This document shows positions 6,344 through 58,349 of a DNA stretch of 60,811 nucleotides, one piece after another. The translations under genes and the position numbers were made by a program. The notes beneath the pieces were generated by a model. That model was not told where the DNA came from and did no database searches. It saw nothing but the letters and a program-made list of their open reading frames with translations. Origin of the DNA: Alphaproteobacteria bacterium. Lineage in GTDB: Bacteria > Pseudomonadota > Alphaproteobacteria > JABAAW01. Within the stretch, counting starts at the first letter, position 1. Every line of letters starts with the position of its first letter. Location of the stretch: assembly GCA_014238535.1 (NCBI GenBank), contig JABAAW010000004.1, forward strand, positions 1 to 60,811. Reading direction: 5' to 3'.

Positions 6344-7525
6344 CTAGTTTTTGCTTGCCTTTAATTTTTCAGCAAGGCGCGTTGCGAAGTTATCAGTCAT
6401 ACCTGCGATATAGTCTGCTAGCACGCGCCTTTTTTTATTTTTATGCGGAGTGCTTATATATAGTTCTCTCGACTTTCTATCCCAATGATGCATATTTTCA
6501 GGTTGTGATAGCGTTGTGAAAAGGCATTTAATGATCTCTTGAGCCTTCACTCTCTCACTTTCAACTTCAGTACGCTCGTAAAGATGCTTATGTAAAAAAA
6601 ATTTTAATTTTTTGTTTTTTTCATCTTGCTCGCGCGAAAAACTGACGCATTCGTTGGTAAAGGAATCATCTTCCATTTGTTGTATTGTTGTTGTGATTAT
6701 ATCCTCGACGCTTACACTGATTAGATCTGAAATGAGCCTGCGCTCGTGCCGCAAGTCGTTAAGTCTTTTAGAGTTATTGATAGCATCGTATCTCTCCTTT
6801 ATATGCGGCACAGAATCGCAAACTTGCTCGAGCGTTATTAGTTCGGCGCGTAAGCCGTCCTCTAGATCGTGATGGTTATATGCGATTTCATCGGCGATAC
6901 AAGCGCACTGCGCCTCTAGGCTCGCGGGCTTGGAGAAATCGAAACTTGGCATAATTTTTTTTATAATCGGAAAAAAGCACGATAGTTTTTTCTCATCATC
7001 TTTTTCATCACGCTCTACGACGCCGTGGTGCTTCAGCAAACCTTCCAATGTTGCGGCGGTTAGATTCAAGCCATCGAAGTTGTGTCCTATGAGTTCTAGT
7101 TTAGTTACGATTCGCAAGGTCTGCACATTATGGTCGAATCCGCTAGGGTTCTCTCCGTCTTTGCGCATGAGATTATGTAGCTGCTCCTCGCCTGCGTGCC
7201 CGAAAGGCGGGTGCCCGAGATCGTGGGCTAGGGCAATTGCTTCGCTCAAGTCTTCATCTACACCAATCGCACGAGCAATTGACCGTGCGATCACGGCCAC
7301 CTCTAGCGTATGCGTCAACCTAGTGCGGAAGTGATCGCCTTTAGGGCGGATAAAGACCTGCGTTTTATGCATCAACCTGCGAAAAGCGCGCGAGTATATG
7401 ATACGATCTCGGTCCTTCTGAAAAGCCCCACGCCAGCGAGAACTACTCTTGCCCTCTTCGTACTGCCTATTGCTATGCGGCGATTCGGCGCGAGTAATAT
7501 ATTTATTAGATATTTCTTTCTTCAC
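6344..7525 (-). CDS. dgt: Deoxyguanosinetriphosphate triphosphohydrolase (HD family)
   Basis: FQKDRDRIIYSRAFRRLMHKTQVF, RTRLTHTLEV, HDLGHPPFGHAGE, DYIAGMTD. Confidence 0.95.
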   Translation of the reverse strand: MKKEISNKYITRAESPHSNRQYEEGKSSSRWRGAFQKDRDRIIYSRAFRRLMHKTQVFIRPKGDHFRTRLTHTLEVAVIARSIARAIGVDEDLSEAIALAHDLGHPPFGHAGEEQLHNLMRKDGENPSGFDHNVQTLRIVTKLELIGHNFDGLNLTAATLEGLLKHHGVVERDEKDDEKKLSCFFPIIKKIMPSFDFSKPASLEAQCACIADEIAYNHHDLEDGLRAELITLEQVCDSVPHIKERYDAINNSKRLNDLRHERRLISDLISVSVEDIITTTIQQMEDDSFTNECVSFSREQDEKNKKLKFFLHKHLYERTEVESERVKAQEIIKCLFTTLSQPENMHHWDRKSRELYISTPHKNKKRRVLADYIAGMTDNFATRLAEKLKASKN

Positions 7526-7535
7526 GATATTACAT

Positions 7536-10313
7536 CTATGTAGTGGGCATCAGGGTTGAGGCGTCGGCTTTCTCCCTCGAGGCGCGCCGTACCTCCATAG
7601 CCATCTCGTTATGGTTGACGAAAATTCCTCCGACGATTTGATTTTTATTATTTATTAAGATATTCCACCACTTATCGTCCTTGACGGCTTTACGATTTAA
7701 AGCACGATCGCTTGGCAACGGGTCGATTCGCCCAAAGGAGACCAAGTTGAAATTCGGCACTTTCAGAATATATGGAGTATTGTATATGTCTGCGTCGATA
7801 TTTTTGTTGAATCCCAGCATATTATGAGCGGCGATTCGCCCCATCTCCAAGCCTATTCCCCATAGCCCGCTGGTTGTAGCTTGCTCCCACCTTGCGCAAT
7901 CCCCGACGGCGTATATATTTTTTTGCGAGGTTTGCATGTTAGCAGTTACGGCTATTGCGCCTTTTTCTATCATCAATCCTGCTTCTTGCGCTATGCGAAT
8001 TTGCGGAATTACGCCGATTGAGAAGACACAAATATCTGTTGCGAGCGGAGGTTTATCCCTGAGTATGACTTCAGATATGCCGCTTTCGTTGTCGGTTATT
8101 TGTATCACATCTTCCTGTAGAATAACCTCGATGCCATTTTTTACTAGGAATCGATGAAGAAGCCTAGCGGCTGTCATATCGGCATGTCGATTGACCAGTT
8201 TTGTAGAGCGATGGACGAGCGCTACTTGCAGCCCCATACTTTTCAGAGCTAGAGCTGTTTCGACACCTTGCAACCCGCCGCCGACGACGACGGCTCTACG
8301 CGCTTCGCGTTCTTGTGCCCACTTGCGCACTGCTATTGCCTCGTCGGCACTACGCATAGTGAAAACTCCGCCTATGTGTTCGAATGGTGGCGCGAGCGCC
8401 TGCGAGCCCAAAGCCAATATGAGATGATCGTATGGGAGTCGCTGTCCTGTTGACAACAATACATTCTTAGATTTTAACTCTAAGCGCGAGGCAAAAGTAT
8501 TTAGCCAAAGGTCGACTTTATTTTTATCGAACCAGTCTTCTTTCAACAAGAACAACGATTGCATACCGCTACGCCCATAGATAAGACGCCCTAGACCCAT
8601 ACGATTATAAAAATTATACGGCTCGGCGGAGACTTGTGAGATTTTACAATATGGGCTCAACATGCGCGTGAATTGCACGGCACTAGAGCCAGCGACCCCA
8701 TTGCCAATGACGACTACTTTTATATTTTTGTTAGAGTCTTGTGCGCGACTGCTTGGCGTTGCGGTATTTGCATCGATATGCCCTAATGAAAAAGACTCGC
8801 TAGTAGAGGTTGCTTTAGTTGGCAGACTTTTCGCCCTGCTATGCGAGAGGTCTAGACTTATCTCGACGCTGCCGCGCACCTTCATCATGCAAGCCATGCG
8901 CGCTTTACCTAATAGCCCTAGTCGTATCAGCGTATTGCGTTCTTCGTTGCCGACTGGCTCGACATTATCCACGCCCTCGAGAATTGCAATCGGGTCAGAG
9001 CCACATATTCCCATATGACAGCCGCTCTCTATGGGGATATTTGTCTCTTCCATAGGTTCCAAGATTGGATGACCTGCTTTTGCAAAAAAACTTATTCGCG
9101 ATTGATTCTCGAATATTTTGAACTTACCTGTTGCTTTATTAGTAGCTAATGATTTTTGCAAACCTGAGAGGTTACCGACCAAGATGCTATTTCCTTTTTT
9201 CTTCAGCCAATTGAATCGAGCTTCCTGCGACAACGCGATAGCGCCGCAAGCGACTAATAGTAAAAGCATGGTGAAGCGTATGGGTTGCTCGTATCCGACT
9301 AATGCTTCGCCAAAAACTGCTAAGTTTTCACCAACGCTCGCAAAGATAGGCGATAGTTTCCCGATACCGCCCATGAATGCCTCGCTATCTTGCGCGAGTT
9401 CTAGGCGAATATCAGCCAGACTTGCCAGCGAGGACGATAGAATGGGTATAGAAAACCAGTAGAAAATCCCTAAGCAAGTATATATCGACGATAACGCGAG
9501 ACGGTAGTTGCTTATGGGAAGGTATGCCAAGAGTAAAAAATACCCACCACCTGAGAGCAGTAGCATAGATGAGAACATACGGAAGTAGTTTGCTATATCG
9601 TCTTCGGCAAGACCACGATAGGAAAAGAAACCGAATATCAGCCCTGGTAGCAATCCTAAGAATGCGTGTCGGTGCAATGCGTAGCGTTTGTTACCATCGT
9701 TTATATCTTCGAGCAATGATGGTCGAGGGTTGAAATCGTAGCAGTTTTTCTGACAACCCACACAAGGGTTGCAAAAGCTATTCGGCACGACCATCATCGG
9801 TGCTTGCCCGTAGACTTTTTGTAATGGAGCAAGAGGGCAAAAAGTTCCACACCAACCGCTTTTGCCATTAAATAAAATACCGCCTAGCAACGCTAGCCCA
9901 GCGAAGGTAGCCAGCAAGATTAGCAACGCTTGGTTACTCGGCTCGAACAGAACTGGACGCAAGACGATTATCAGCACGAATACAATTCCAGCAAAGGCAA
10001 AAGCGCTAAGCTTTAAGACTCTCGGCAGTTTCCATTGTAGCGATAGGCGTAATGTTTGTGGCAGCTGGTTTATAGCTGCGAGCGGACAAAGGTTGCGCCA
10101 CAATCCGGGCGCGACAATAAGAAGCAACGGCAAAGAGGGAACAGCCACCCCCCACAAAAGATTTTTAGCCCAAGTATGATCTAGCGACAAGCAAGCGAGT
10201 ATGAAGACGATGCTAGTAATACTTATTACTCGCAGGAATAGCCACAGCCAAGACGGAATAATTCGGCGTGCTTGCCTGTAGTTGACAAAAGGACTTTGGA
10301 TAAAAAACGGCAT
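7536..10313 (-). CDS. Multidomain membrane Fe-S protein / [2Fe-2S] ferredoxin / FAD-dependent NAD(P)H oxidoreductase fusion, function unknown
   Basis: N-terminal TM helices with C76-P, C155xxxC159-P and C181xxC184xxC187xxxC191; central C432-x4-C437-x2-D440...C475; C-terminal Rossmann motifs VIGNGVAG and VVGGGLQGVE plus YAVGDC, like the NirB N-terminal or rubredoxin-reductase flavoproteins. Confidence 0.8.
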   Translation of the reverse strand: MPFFIQSPFVNYRQARRIIPSWLWLFLRVISITSIVFILACLSLDHTWAKNLLWGVAVPSLPLLLIVAPGLWRNLCPLAAINQLPQTLRLSLQWKLPRVLKLSAFAFAGIVFVLIIVLRPVLFEPSNQALLILLATFAGLALLGGILFNGKSGWCGTFCPLAPLQKVYGQAPMMVVPNSFCNPCVGCQKNCYDFNPRPSLLEDINDGNKRYALHRHAFLGLLPGLIFGFFSYRGLAEDDIANYFRMFSSMLLLSGGGYFLLLAYLPISNYRLALSSIYTCLGIFYWFSIPILSSSLASLADIRLELAQDSEAFMGGIGKLSPIFASVGENLAVFGEALVGYEQPIRFTMLLLLVACGAIALSQEARFNWLKKKGNSILVGNLSGLQKSLATNKATGKFKIFENQSRISFFAKAGHPILEPMEETNIPIESGCHMGICGSDPIAILEGVDNVEPVGNEERNTLIRLGLLGKARMACMMKVRGSVEISLDLSHSRAKSLPTKATSTSESFSLGHIDANTATPSSRAQDSNKNIKVVVIGNGVAGSSAVQFTRMLSPYCKISQVSAEPYNFYNRMGLGRLIYGRSGMQSLFLLKEDWFDKNKVDLWLNTFASRLELKSKNVLLSTGQRLPYDHLILALGSQALAPPFEHIGGVFTMRSADEAIAVRKWAQEREARRAVVVGGGLQGVETALALKSMGLQVALVHRSTKLVNRHADMTAARLLHRFLVKNGIEVILQEDVIQITDNESGISEVILRDKPPLATDICVFSIGVIPQIRIAQEAGLMIEKGAIAVTANMQTSQKNIYAVGDCARWEQATTSGLWGIGLEMGRIAAHNMLGFNKNIDADIYNTPYILKVPNFNLVSFGRIDPLPSDRALNRKAVKDDKWWNILINNKNQIVGGIFVNHNEMAMEVRRASREKADASTLMPTT

Positions 10314-10396
10314 GACGAACGCGAGTCTTAGATGCCCCCTAGAACTAGTTTCGAGACACTTTTTGTTTTGTCAAAGTGTCTTCGTGCGCGGGCGAT

Positions 10397-10909
10397 TTAA
10401 TTGGAAGAAATCAGAGATGCCATGAACCTATTCCGCATAGAAAGGACTTTTCCGAAATCGAATAGCAGCTGCCTAGCCAGATAAGGTTCCTCGGCAAACA
10501 GACGTTCGAAGTCTTCGCGAGTTATGCGCAGGACCAATCCTTTGGTTATGGCTTGTATAGTTGCGCTACGCGGTCTGCGTTCAAAGAATGCCATCTCACC
10601 GAAGACGGAGCCTTCGGGTATAATTGCCAAGACTCGTTTTCCGAAGAACGGCTGCTTGACGACTACCTGCACTTCACCCTCGGCGAGAATAAAGACAGCG
10701 TCGTCTTTTTCGCCGACATTGATTAGATTTTCTTCTGCTTCGAATCGCTGCGTAGTTGCAAAATCGAGCAACCGTCGCCAGTCTTCTTGCTTTAGCTGCT
10801 TAAGTACGGAGTTAGCTTCTTCGTCCAACCTATTAGACGAGGCTGCTTCGGTGCCTCCATCTTTTTCATTTTTTTCTTTTTCGTTGTAGTAGAAATTTTT
10901 CATAAGCAT
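10397..10909 (-). CDS. Stand-alone cyclic nucleotide-binding domain protein
   Basis: VFILAEGEVQV, FGEMAFFERRPRSATIQA (phosphate-binding cassette). 170 aa, too short for a Crp HTH domain. Confidence 0.85.
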   Translation of the reverse strand: MLMKNFYYNEKEKNEKDGGTEAASSNRLDEEANSVLKQLKQEDWRRLLDFATTQRFEAEENLINVGEKDDAVFILAEGEVQVVVKQPFFGKRVLAIIPEGSVFGEMAFFERRPRSATIQAITKGLVLRITREDFERLFAEEPYLARQLLFDFGKVLSMRNRFMASLISSN

Positions 10910-11074
10910 AGAGTCTTATATGCATCGTCCCTTCCATAGATAGCATATATTGCGAGGCTATTTTATAATAGCGTCACGAGCGCAGGCATTTGCCTAGACC
11001 ATTATAATTGATTGGTGCTAGACTAGCAATGTTTGTTGCGAATTTTCTACTGAGGTTAATATTAAAGTTATTCG

Positions 11075-56763: not shown

Positions 56764-57813
56764 ATGGAAGCTTTACCCTTCGCATCGTCTGCTTCGTGGC
56801 AAGAGATTATTTGGCAACAAAACATCAAACCTATTTTATTGTTAATCGGTATTTCTGTTGCGATTATTCTATGCGTTATCATTGCGGTTGCGTATCTTAC
56901 CTATGCGGAACGCAAGGTATTGGCTTGGATTCAACGACGCCGAGGTCCGAATACGGTAGGTCCGTTTGGTTTGCTGCAACCTTTTGCGGATGCTTTTAAG
57001 CTTATTTTCAAGGAACCTGTGATTCCAGCTGGAGCGGATAGGGTAGTTTTTTTGTGTGCGCCTATTCTGACTTTTGGTCTTGCGCTAGGAGCTTGGGCGG
57101 TTATTCCTATTGCTGACGGGGTTGTTTTTGCGGATGTCAATGCGGGTATTTTGTATTTATTTGCGCTTTCGTCGCTTGGAGTTTATGGGGTTATCATGGG
57201 AGGCTGGGCTTCTAACTCGCAATATGCGTTTCTTGGAGCGATGCGTTCTGCAGCGCAGATGATTTCTTACGAGATAGCGATCGGCTTTGTTATTGTTTGC
57301 GTTCTGCTGCTGTCTGGTTCGTTGAACCTTAGTAGTATTGTGCATGCGCAATCTGAGATGTGGTTTATATTTCCGTTATTTCCGATGGCGATAATATTTT
57401 TTATATCTGGTTTAGCGGAGACGAACAGGGCGCCATTCGACCTGCCTGAGAGTGAGAGCGAGCTTGTATCTGGTTTTAATGTTGAGTATTCGGGTATGGT
57501 ATTCGCATTATTTTTTTTAGGCGAGTATGCGAATATGATATTGATAGCGGCGCTAGCGACTCTTTTTTTCTTTGGTGGTTGGCTATCGCCAATTTCGTTT
57601 GAGCCATTTTTATCAGTCCCTGCGCCTGTGTGGTTTATGCTCAAGGTATGTATTTTGTTATTTTTGTTTCTTTGGGTAAGGGGGACTTTTCCGCGTTATC
57701 GCTATGATCAGCTTATGCGTCTTGGTTGGAAGGTATTTCTTCCGTTATCTTTGCTATGGGTAATTTTTATTTCTAGTCTGGTTTATTTTTTTGATATTCC
57801 TAGTCGAGTTTAA
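56764..57813 (+). CDS. nuoH: NADH-quinone oxidoreductase subunit H
   Basis: [63 protein letters not shown]. Confidence 0.97.
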
Positions 57814-57860
57814 TTTTATCTAGCAAGACTTTGTCTGCCTAATAGTTTATTACTTATAGT

Positions 57861-58349
57861 ATGTATTCTTTTTTACGCTTTATTCATTCTTTTTTGCTAC
57901 TAGACTTGTTGCGCGGGTTATTTTTGACTTTTCGCAGTATGTTTCGTAGCAAGCATACATTGAACTATCCGTATGAGAAGGGTCGTCTTAGCCCTCGCTT
58001 TCGCGGAGAGCATGCGTTGCGCCGTTATGCGAATGGGGAGGAGCGTTGTATAGCGTGCAAATTATGTGAATCTGTTTGTCCTGCGCAAGCGATTACGATT
58101 GACTCAGTTGAGCGAGAGGATGGTTCTCGGCGAGCGATTCGTTACGATATCGATATGACCAAATGTATCTACTGTGGATTATGCGAGGAATCGTGCCCTG
58201 TTGATGCGATTGTGCAGGGAAGTAATTTCGAATTCGCAACGGAAAAAAGGGAAGAATTACTTTTCGACAAGCAACACCTCCTTGATAATGGTGATCGCTG
58301 GGAAGAAGCATTATCAGCAAATCTCAAGCGCGACGAACTCTATCGGTAA
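57861..58349 (+). CDS. nuoI: NADH-quinone oxidoreductase subunit I
   Basis: [48 protein letters not shown]. Confidence 0.97.

Follow-up and report, generated by a model that had tools for sequence, protein, structure and literature searches.

A single-chain membrane Fe-S flavoprotein encoded next to a stand-alone cyclic-nucleotide-binding protein: a candidate signal-controlled redox module in a reduced alphaproteobacterial genome

The window analysed here comprises 60,811 nucleotides of an Alphaproteobacteria bacterium genome (assembly GCA_014238535.1, contig JABAAW010000004.1, positions 1 to 60,811). On its minus strand lie two adjacent open reading frames (ORFs): an upstream one for a 170-aa protein predicted to bind cyclic nucleoside monophosphates (cNMPs), hereafter the partner, and, after a gap of 83 bp, one for a 925-aa membrane flavoprotein, hereafter the enzyme. 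An original prediction, made from the DNA letters, had described both ORFs and the gap and proposed that the enzyme carries electrons from NAD(P)H to a membrane acceptor under cNMP control; coordinates and strand were both as it had given them. The two genes are:

7536..10313, minus strand: 925-aa single-chain membrane Fe-S flavoprotein (ORF with full-length relatives at 35-66% identity; AlphaFold2 (AF2) model with a mean predicted local distance difference test score (pLDDT) of 88.6)
10397..10909, minus strand: stand-alone cNMP-binding partner of 170 aa (PF00027)

Translation of the partner possibly starts at M3 (10903) instead of M1, to judge from its relatives, which begin MKNF(D/E)Y. The conservation of the pair was followed in a sample of 80 related loci, taken as one genome per species from at least four phyla including Proteobacteria, Chloroflexota and Actinomycetota, in which the 2373 ORFs flanking the enzyme were clustered; statements on recurring neighbours refer to this sample.

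Domains of the 925-residue enzyme

The enzyme combines three parts, listed here from the N-terminus with the motifs discussed below:

9189..10313, minus strand: membrane domain, residues 1-375, eight transmembrane (TM) helices (AF2 helices, hydropathy, positive-inside count)
9663..10277, minus strand: NapH-related module, residues 13-217, four TM helices with WxxxCP, CxxxCP and one ferredoxin-type Cys motif (hhalign, NCBIfam)
10083..10100, minus strand: W72-R-N-L-C76-P77, counterpart of the first CX3CP motif of NapH, with Trp replacing the first Cys (hhalign)
9834..9854, minus strand: W154-C155-G-T-F-C159-P160, the second CX3CP motif and Fer4_5 signature (invariant in the family)
9726..9773, minus strand: C181-xx-C184-xx-C187-xxx-C191-Y-D-F-N-P, the sole ferredoxin-type cluster motif (invariant; aligned with the first [4Fe-4S] motif of NapH)
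8856..9128, minus strand: [2Fe-2S] ferredoxin-fold domain, residues 396-486, with C432-x4-C437-x2-D440...C475 (Fer2 hidden Markov model (HMM), Foldseek)
7569..8726, minus strand: flavin adenine dinucleotide (FAD)/NAD(P)H ferredoxin-reductase-type domain, residues 530-915 (Pfam, PDB profile, Foldseek)

In the C-terminal part, Pfam matched Pyr_redox_2 (PF07992) to residues 532-814 (E 9e-49, 166.8 bits) and, weakly, Rubredoxin_C to residues 849-911, with no match in residues 1-380 and no domain after the reductase, as expected of the two-Rossmann FAD/NAD(P)H reductase without downstream siroheme or catalytic domain that had been described. Residues 530-915 contain GxGxxG motifs at 537-542 and 678-683, a G804-D805 pair and a Rubredoxin_C-type C-terminal subdomain; G537/G539/G542, G678-G680/G683 and G804-D805 are invariant across the family. 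A profile search of PDB sequences, in which the reductase domain alone was matched, returned 3klj, TodA, putidaredoxin reductase and BphA4 at E values of 1e-50 to 5e-70, and Foldseek with the AF2 model gave target TM-scores of 0.82-0.87 to PdR, BphA4, TodA and RdxR. Residues 530-915 thus belong by motifs (GxGxxG twice, GD once) and by modelled fold to the ferredoxin/rubredoxin reductases with two dinucleotide-binding domains. The putidaredoxin reductase, BphA4, TodA and rubredoxin reductase group has the same fold and cofactor motifs and passes electrons to a [2Fe-2S] ferredoxin or a rubredoxin; its members of the putidaredoxin reductase, BphA4 and TodA kind are soluble and use a separate ferredoxin that serves oxygenases, whereas in the 925-aa protein the ferredoxin is fused.

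The best NCBIfam matches were the N-terminal half of NirB and ferredoxin/rubredoxin reductases, all far under their cut-offs, and together with the PDB profile and Foldseek results they agree with the earlier likening of the flavoprotein part to the NirB N-terminus or rubredoxin reductase. Membership of NirB itself was rejected: the model (TIGR02374) scored 209 bits against a cut-off of 578 and was matched at positions 1-372 of 794 alone, the protein stops after the Rubredoxin_C subdomain, and the BFD-type cluster and siroheme/NIR_SIR domains of NirB are both absent.

In the middle domain, Fer2 (PF00111) matched weakly at residues 401-447 (16 bits, cut-off 21), with scores of up to 59 bits, above the cut-off, in relatives, and a model of residues 1-490 (pLDDT 86, predicted TM-score (pTM) 0.84) had as its best Foldseek match the [2Fe-2S] ferredoxin FdC (9i2a; TM-score 0.87, root-mean-square deviation 1.8 Å). 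The [2Fe-2S] domain proposed earlier is therefore borne out in its fold, but not in a full set of four Cys ligands: only three Cys are invariant (C432, C437 and C475), and the third plant-type ligand position is occupied by an invariant Asp, D440. We thus predict a [2Fe-2S] cluster with a Cys3Asp ligand set. A parallel is found in E. coli SdhB, where CREGVCGSD...LAC corresponds to the C-R-M-G-x-C-G-S/A-D...A-C of the ferredoxin domain, with Asp at the third ligand position in both. This Asp of SdhB ligates the [2Fe-2S] cluster in the structure of succinate:quinone reductase. The overall similarity between the two is nevertheless weak (hhalign 54%), and SdhB holds two further clusters.

The combination of parts also recalls NqrF of Na+-NQR, which likewise joins a membrane anchor, a [2Fe-2S] ferredoxin domain and an NADH/FAD domain that feeds Fe-S centres in membrane subunits, and a weak Foldseek match to NqrF (8ad0_F) was obtained via the ferredoxin domain. 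NqrF, however, belongs to a pump of six subunits and has only one TM helix, and its flavodomain is of the FNR type, in contrast to the two-Rossmann flavodomain of the enzyme.

The TM helices of the membrane domain were placed at residues 21-43, 47-67, 98-123, 127-148, 209-231, 240-264, 269-308 and 342-372. Hydropathy, the AF2 model and the positive-inside rule (13 Lys and Arg in inside loops vs 2 outside) point to a topology with both termini inside and all Cys motifs on the cytoplasmic face, and the N-terminus is placed in the cytoplasm also because relatives fuse an FHA domain there. In the Foldseek search with the model of residues 1-490, [2Fe-2S] ferredoxins alone were matched, so the eight-helix part resembles no solved structure. 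The outside loop between TM7 and TM8 carries a 33-residue insert (residues 309-341; 9291-9389, minus strand) that is present in the genus, absent from relatives at 35% identity and helical in the AF2 prediction.

At the profile level, the membrane part of the family aligned with E. coli NapH over residues 13-217 (hhalign probability 95%, E 2.6e-8), pairing WRNLCP with CSWVCP, GWCGTFCP with GWCGHICP and CNPCVGCQKNC with CNRCMDCFHVC; Fer4_5 (PF12801) reached up to 30.7 bits, above its cut-off, in relatives. Both results uphold the kinship with the NosR/NapH/CcoG group that had been suggested earlier. All the Cys motifs named at that time are present and invariant in 92 members, except that the first of them is not a CxxxCP but a WxxxCP (W72...C76-P77). 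As in NapH, whose module is common to NosR and RdhC/PceC, four TM helices are accompanied by a Cys-Pro after TM2, a W-C-x3-C-P after TM4 and then a CxxCxxCxxxC, all cytoplasmic. The enzyme differs from NapH in having one ferredoxin-type motif instead of two and a first CX3CP that misses its first Cys, in four additional TM helices, in the fused ferredoxin and NAD(P)H reductase, in the lack of a nap, nos or rdh gene context, and in its linkage to cNMP and FHA signalling.

Several named families were considered and rejected for the protein as a whole. The best NCBIfam match of the membrane part is NapH NF007013, at E 2.2e-6 and 27 bits against a cut-off of 234, and TIGR02163 gave 22.5 against 213; with an incomplete first CX3CP, no counterpart of the second [4Fe-4S] motif, and no nap, mau or nos context or NapG-type partner in the window or the 80 related loci, we do not assign the enzyme to NapH/MauN, although homology is still backed by hhalign. 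For NosR, no FMN_bind match was obtained, and in place of a periplasmic FMN-binding domain the enzyme starts with a cytoplasmic tail of 20 residues. For CcoG/FixG/RdxA, TIGR02745 misses the gene, giving in the whole-genome search only a weak match elsewhere (57930-58196), and no FixG_C domain was found in the Pfam scans.

CcoG does suggest a different function. This cupric reductase, itself a polytopic membrane Fe-S protein in the Fer4_5 superfamily, works without a tightly bound terminal enzyme, and the 925-aa enzyme might likewise reduce Cu(II), Fe(III) or another metal ion at the cytoplasmic face, with a built-in NAD(P)H supply and under signal control. The shared Fer4_5/CX3CP signature, the cytoplasm-facing Fe-S centres with no partner enzyme encoded nearby, and the absence of CcoG from the genome (TIGR02745, whole-genome search) would fit such a role. 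CcoG itself, on the other hand, is fused to neither a flavoprotein nor a [2Fe-2S] domain. We consider a metal-reductase role unlikely, given that the TIGR02745 signature and periplasmic FixG_C domain of CcoG are lacking here, and that no metal transporter or chaperone recurs beside the module. The genome also has an aa3-type COX1, although no search was aimed at a cbb3 oxidase, which would need CcoG.

Alignments of 30 and 92 members showed seven invariant Cys in the membrane part (C76, C155, C159, C181, C184, C187 and C191) and no invariant His there, and the family alignments showed no conserved Cys or cofactor ligands on its outside face. The Cys of WxxxCP and CxxxCP might act as a redox-active dithiol that relays NAD(P)H reducing power to a thiol or disulfide target in the membrane or periplasm instead of to quinone. 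Such a role has been proposed for the CX3CP motifs of RdhC and NosR, and NosR is reported to contain 8 Fe only, enough for its two ferredoxin-type clusters, so that its CX3CP motifs may form disulfides (PMC5928378); in the 925-aa family these motifs are invariant. A thiol relay nevertheless appears improbable with a single Cys in the first motif, all Cys cytoplasmic and none conserved outside, and no thioredoxin-like or DsbD-like gene recurring as a neighbour.

The order of membrane domain, Fer2 and Pyr_redox_2 was kept in every length variant scanned, and the arrangement of reductase, [2Fe-2S] domain and NapH-type membrane module foreseen in the original prediction was borne out by HMMs, hhalign and the fold search. 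From these sequence and model data the 925-aa protein appears to be a self-contained membrane oxidoreductase, built of a reductase, a ferredoxin and an eight-helix membrane domain. Its full-length relatives number in the hundreds and measure about 870-930 aa; they align at 35-66% identity over 96-100% of the length of the 925-aa protein and carry only the database names 'FAD-dependent oxidoreductase' or 'nitrite reductase large subunit'. A full-text literature search (cNMP, FHA, NapH, FAD-oxidoreductase, polyferredoxin) found no paper on the family or on a characterised member, which accords with the earlier failure to recognise one. The family thus appears to be uncharacterised and to fall within the NapH/NosR/CcoG kind of membrane Fe-S proteins, with its own NAD(P)H input and its signalling linkage as seemingly new traits.

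The partner protein and its conserved position

The partner matched cNMP_binding (PF00027) at E 3.7e-19 and 68.9 bits, against a cut-off of 27.5. Its features are:

10490..10750, minus strand: cyclic-nucleotide-binding (CNB) domain, residues 54-140 (Pfam)
10556-10612, minus strand: phosphate-binding cassette, G104-E105...R114-S115-A116 (alignment of 72 partners)
10883..10897, minus strand: N-terminal [FY]F[DN]Y motif, here NFYYN, residues 5-9 (alignment of partner N-termini)

The cassette, G-E-x-A-F...P-R-S-A, is conserved among the 72 aligned partners and intact here, and with a score above the cut-off the partner belongs to PF00027. It is a stand-alone CNB domain without an output domain, and its N-terminal motif is possibly a docking or inhibitory segment. 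A similar F-[PA]-N-Y stands just before TM1 in the reductase family (10277-10289, minus strand). A CRP/FNR transcription factor was rejected as an identity for the partner, which has only 170 aa and matches the CRP model at positions 10-135 of 214, with 46.8 bits against 266.

The CNB domain also invites comparison with Pycsar-type anti-phage or conflict systems, in which the cNMP sensor would trigger a membrane effector that collapses the redox balance. It aligns with the CNB region of PycTIR models (E 6e-18, positions 31-145 of 288), FHA and kinase neighbours of the kind seen in related loci are known in some conflict systems, and the spread of the family is rare and patchy. We regard a defence function as very improbable: the reductase matches no PADLOC model, no Pycsar-type cyclase is adjacent, and the pair lies amid housekeeping genes (aconitase, ArgRS) and is kept in all 11 genomes of two reduced-genome families. 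Membership of Pycsar was likewise rejected, as the CNB part of the PycTIR model alone was matched, with no match to a TIR or TM killing domain and no adjacent PycC cyclase.

A partner gene lies directly upstream on the same strand in 71 of the 80 loci (partner HMM), and the partner invariably precedes the reductase. The distance from its end to the aligned reductase start is usually tens of bases at most, and sometimes the two overlap. In three loci that were looked up exactly, one from a close relative and two at 35% identity, a cNMP_binding gene for 154-162 aa again stands directly upstream while the other neighbours are all different. The pairing is thus not due to chance, since the partner is kept upstream in 71 of 80 loci while other neighbours differ. 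The cNMP-linked homologues that the original prediction called for were accordingly found as neighbours, but not as fusions: no cNMP domain fused to the enzyme was seen among the 120 best full-length matches or the long and odd-length variants scanned.

The nine loci without a partner include five with FHA-fused enzymes, one with a separate upstream FHA+T6SS_FHA_C gene, one without upstream sequence and two with no sensor. Across the sample, an FHA domain is fused to the enzyme N-terminus in 14 loci, nine of which also have the partner. Besides the partner (72 loci by clustering), the recurrent neighbours were Ser/Thr kinases, some with FHA (12 loci), FHA+T6SS_FHA_C proteins (11), FHA-cyclases and a further FHA protein in Acidimicrobiia (6-8), and generic response regulators and ABC-type ATPases (10 each, variable in position and strand). 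No terminal reductase, cytochrome or transporter recurred, so the earlier remark that no terminal enzyme is encoded nearby extends to the related loci. A third gene varies by lineage (for example L039:8660-9607, L016:3270-4628, L075:3517-5298 and similar loci), being an FHA-cyclase in Acidimicrobiia, a Ser/Thr kinase-FHA in Chloroflexia and Solirubrobacterales, and a double-FHA protein with T6SS_FHA_C in Proteobacteria.

A conserved pair need not mean direct gating. The partner could be a co-expressed general cNMP receptor, or the enzyme could act upstream and report the redox state; the second stand-alone CNB protein found elsewhere in two genomes of the genus (G003 and G004) would suit the former, and the nearby FHA proteins, kinases and cyclases equally fit a sensory role of the enzyme. 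Both forms of this explanation seem fairly unlikely, because the gene order and close spacing are kept across phyla with all other neighbours differing, the partner has no output domain, and the fusion of FHA to the enzyme itself points to the enzyme as the regulated target.

A looser precedent is PtdE and its kin, flavo-Fe-S proteins with cNMP or FHA domains from the uncharacterised ptdABCDEFG multihaem cluster, in which a cNMP-binding domain accompanies inner-membrane Fe-S electron-transfer proteins (bioRxiv 10.1101/2023.11.21.568154). The ptd proteins belong to unrelated families and contain the cNMP domain as a fusion, and multihaem cytochromes form the end of their chain, whereas the module described here has a separate sensor protein and lacks haem proteins.

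Proposed electron path and its control

The assembly comprises 1.39 Mb and is 81.6% complete. The enzyme and its adjacent partner occur in all seven genomes of the genus and in all four of the sister family, and the module was found in one of 30 other families of the class. One class III cyclase (PF00211) is encoded in the assembly (contig C33:32781-35108), with a CHASE2 extracytoplasmic sensor, TM helices and a cyclase domain whose K-x-x-G-D motif carries Lys. This Lys marks ATP-specific cyclases. The partner is the one PF00027 gene detectable in the assembly; the more complete genomes G003 and G004 of the same genus each have one extra stand-alone CNB protein elsewhere (119 aa in G004), and no CRP-type regulator was found in the more complete genomes of the genus. 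An NDH-1 complex (NuoH lies in the window) and an aa3-type oxidase indicate a quinone-based aerobic chain. As a side observation, a COX1-like reading frame at C69:13-762 contains 7 in-frame TGA codons and looks like a mitochondrial fragment (TGA = Trp) binned with the genome, either host DNA or contamination.

We favour, with moderate confidence, the reading that partner and enzyme form a conserved, signal-controlled redox module that moves electrons from NAD(P)H through membrane Fe-S centres to a probable quinone, gated by a cNMP. NAD(P)H would reduce the FAD, and the FAD would in turn reduce the fused [2Fe-2S](Cys3Asp) domain, by analogy with putidaredoxin reductase and putidaredoxin. The ferredoxin domain would then reduce one or two Fe-S centres formed from the seven Cys at the membrane face, from which a lipophilic acceptor would take up the electrons; the quinone pool is the likeliest candidate. 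A quinone is favoured because the nearest relative, NapH, is regarded as a quinol-handling module (PMC5928378), because the family shows no conserved ligands for a trans-membrane cofactor and because the host chain is quinone-based. On the signalling side, the CHASE2-type cyclase would make cyclic AMP (cAMP), which the partner would most likely bind, and the partner would most likely activate or shut down the enzyme through direct contact between the two proteins, much as a protein kinase A regulatory subunit acts. In other lineages a phospho-threonine input may act in addition or instead, via the N-terminal FHA domain and neighbouring Ser/Thr kinases.

The kinship with NapH could also be read in the opposite sense, with electrons flowing back from quinol, or being delivered to a soluble or periplasmic enzyme encoded elsewhere, just as NapH supplies NapG and NapC. 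NapH is annotated as a quinol dehydrogenase, which speaks for this option, but electron transfer to NAD(P)+ from quinol runs uphill, the 80 loci have neither a NapG-like protein nor another redox partner nearby, and outside-facing cofactor ligands are not conserved; we therefore judge it quite improbable.

Several points weigh against the favoured electron path and its cAMP control. The quinone acceptor rests on the NapH analogy and on the absence of other cofactor ligands, and no function has been assigned to CX3CP motifs, not even to those of NapH, NosR and RdhC (PMC5928378). The seven membrane Cys fall short of two canonical [4Fe-4S] clusters. With NDH-1 already present, the physiological need for a second electron entry point is hard to account for. 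As to the signal, two intact loci (L047 and L064) have no sensor of any kind, and for the partner CNB domain the scores against CRP and against the CNB domains of Pycsar effectors are equally good. Four sister-family genomes (G007-G010) have the partner-reductase pair and 3-5 cNMP-binding genes, with no class III (PF00211) or CYTH (PF01928) cyclase match. The ligand may therefore not be cAMP everywhere, because the sister family lacks a detectable cyclase and the CNB domain is equally Pycsar-like.

A bolder version of the favoured reading seems possible but doubtful to us: that the family is a previously unrecognised dehydrogenase class, a single-chain non-haem NAD(P)H:quinone oxidoreductase that uses a NapH-like module in the reducing direction, is switched post-translationally by a dedicated cAMP receptor and, in other phyla, by phospho-threonine/FHA signalling, and provides the main, perhaps the only, cAMP output in this organism. 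Bacterial cAMP is known chiefly as a transcriptional signal acting via CRP. To our knowledge, there are few characterised precedents for second-messenger or phospho-threonine control exerted directly on a membrane electron-transfer enzyme, and the module would be a compact, testable case, with only two genes, of which one encodes nothing but a sensor domain. If true, the proposal would assign a role to the CX3CP/Fer4_5 membrane module of the NapH, NosR and RdhC kind, add an Asp-ligated [2Fe-2S] domain for study and explain the role of cAMP in a reduced genome that has a cyclase and lacks a CRP-type regulator.

Distribution of the family and surroundings of the locus

A search of 1.84 billion representative proteins returned about 502 clusters at E<=1e-30. 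The family was found in at least 475 of 185,579 species genomes and in none of 400 genomes drawn evenly from the phylum; its members are scattered over Alpha-, Beta- and Gammaproteobacteria, Chloroflexota, Actinomycetota and Eremiobacterota. Cultured carriers include Andreprevotia, Pleionea and Caenispirillum, so that experiments are feasible despite the rarity of the family. Three long-read metagenome contigs depart from the single-chain form: in two of them the enzyme is encoded as two adjacent or overlapping genes (L090:6001-8552 and L091:6001-8663), and the third carries a lone membrane domain (L089:6001-7056). These forms are either real splits or frameshift errors.

Around the pair, the following further features were noted:

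6344-7525, minus strand: dGTPase-type HD phosphohydrolase (328 bits on the PADLOC dGTPase model)
about 10352-10384, minus strand: 9-bp hairpin in the 83-bp intergenic gap
11001..11029, minus strand: promoter-like TTGCTA-17-TATAAT in the gap between the partner gene and the divergent aconitase gene, about 90 bp upstream of the former

The aconitase gene lies upstream of the partner gene and is divergent from it. In a promoter and terminator scan of the region, promoter-like sites occurred at chance level and no terminator-like site was found between the partner and reductase genes. As promoter-like sites are no commoner than chance, the site at 11001..11029 is at most compatible with a single transcript. 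The 83-bp gap as a whole did not fold more stably than shuffled sequence (z -0.89).

Downstream, the HD phosphohydrolase gene begins 10 bp past the reductase stop on the same strand and is followed by the gene for arginyl-tRNA synthetase. Its best NCBIfam matches were PRK01286-type dGTP triphosphohydrolase models, below their cut-offs; it passed the cut-off of the general dGTPase subfamily model TIGR01353 only, and the anti-phage dGTPase model scored lower. Further along the window, part of a nuo (NDH-1) operon occupies 56857-58196 on the plus strand, where the ORF after NuoH gives a weak ferredoxin-type match and probably encodes NuoI.

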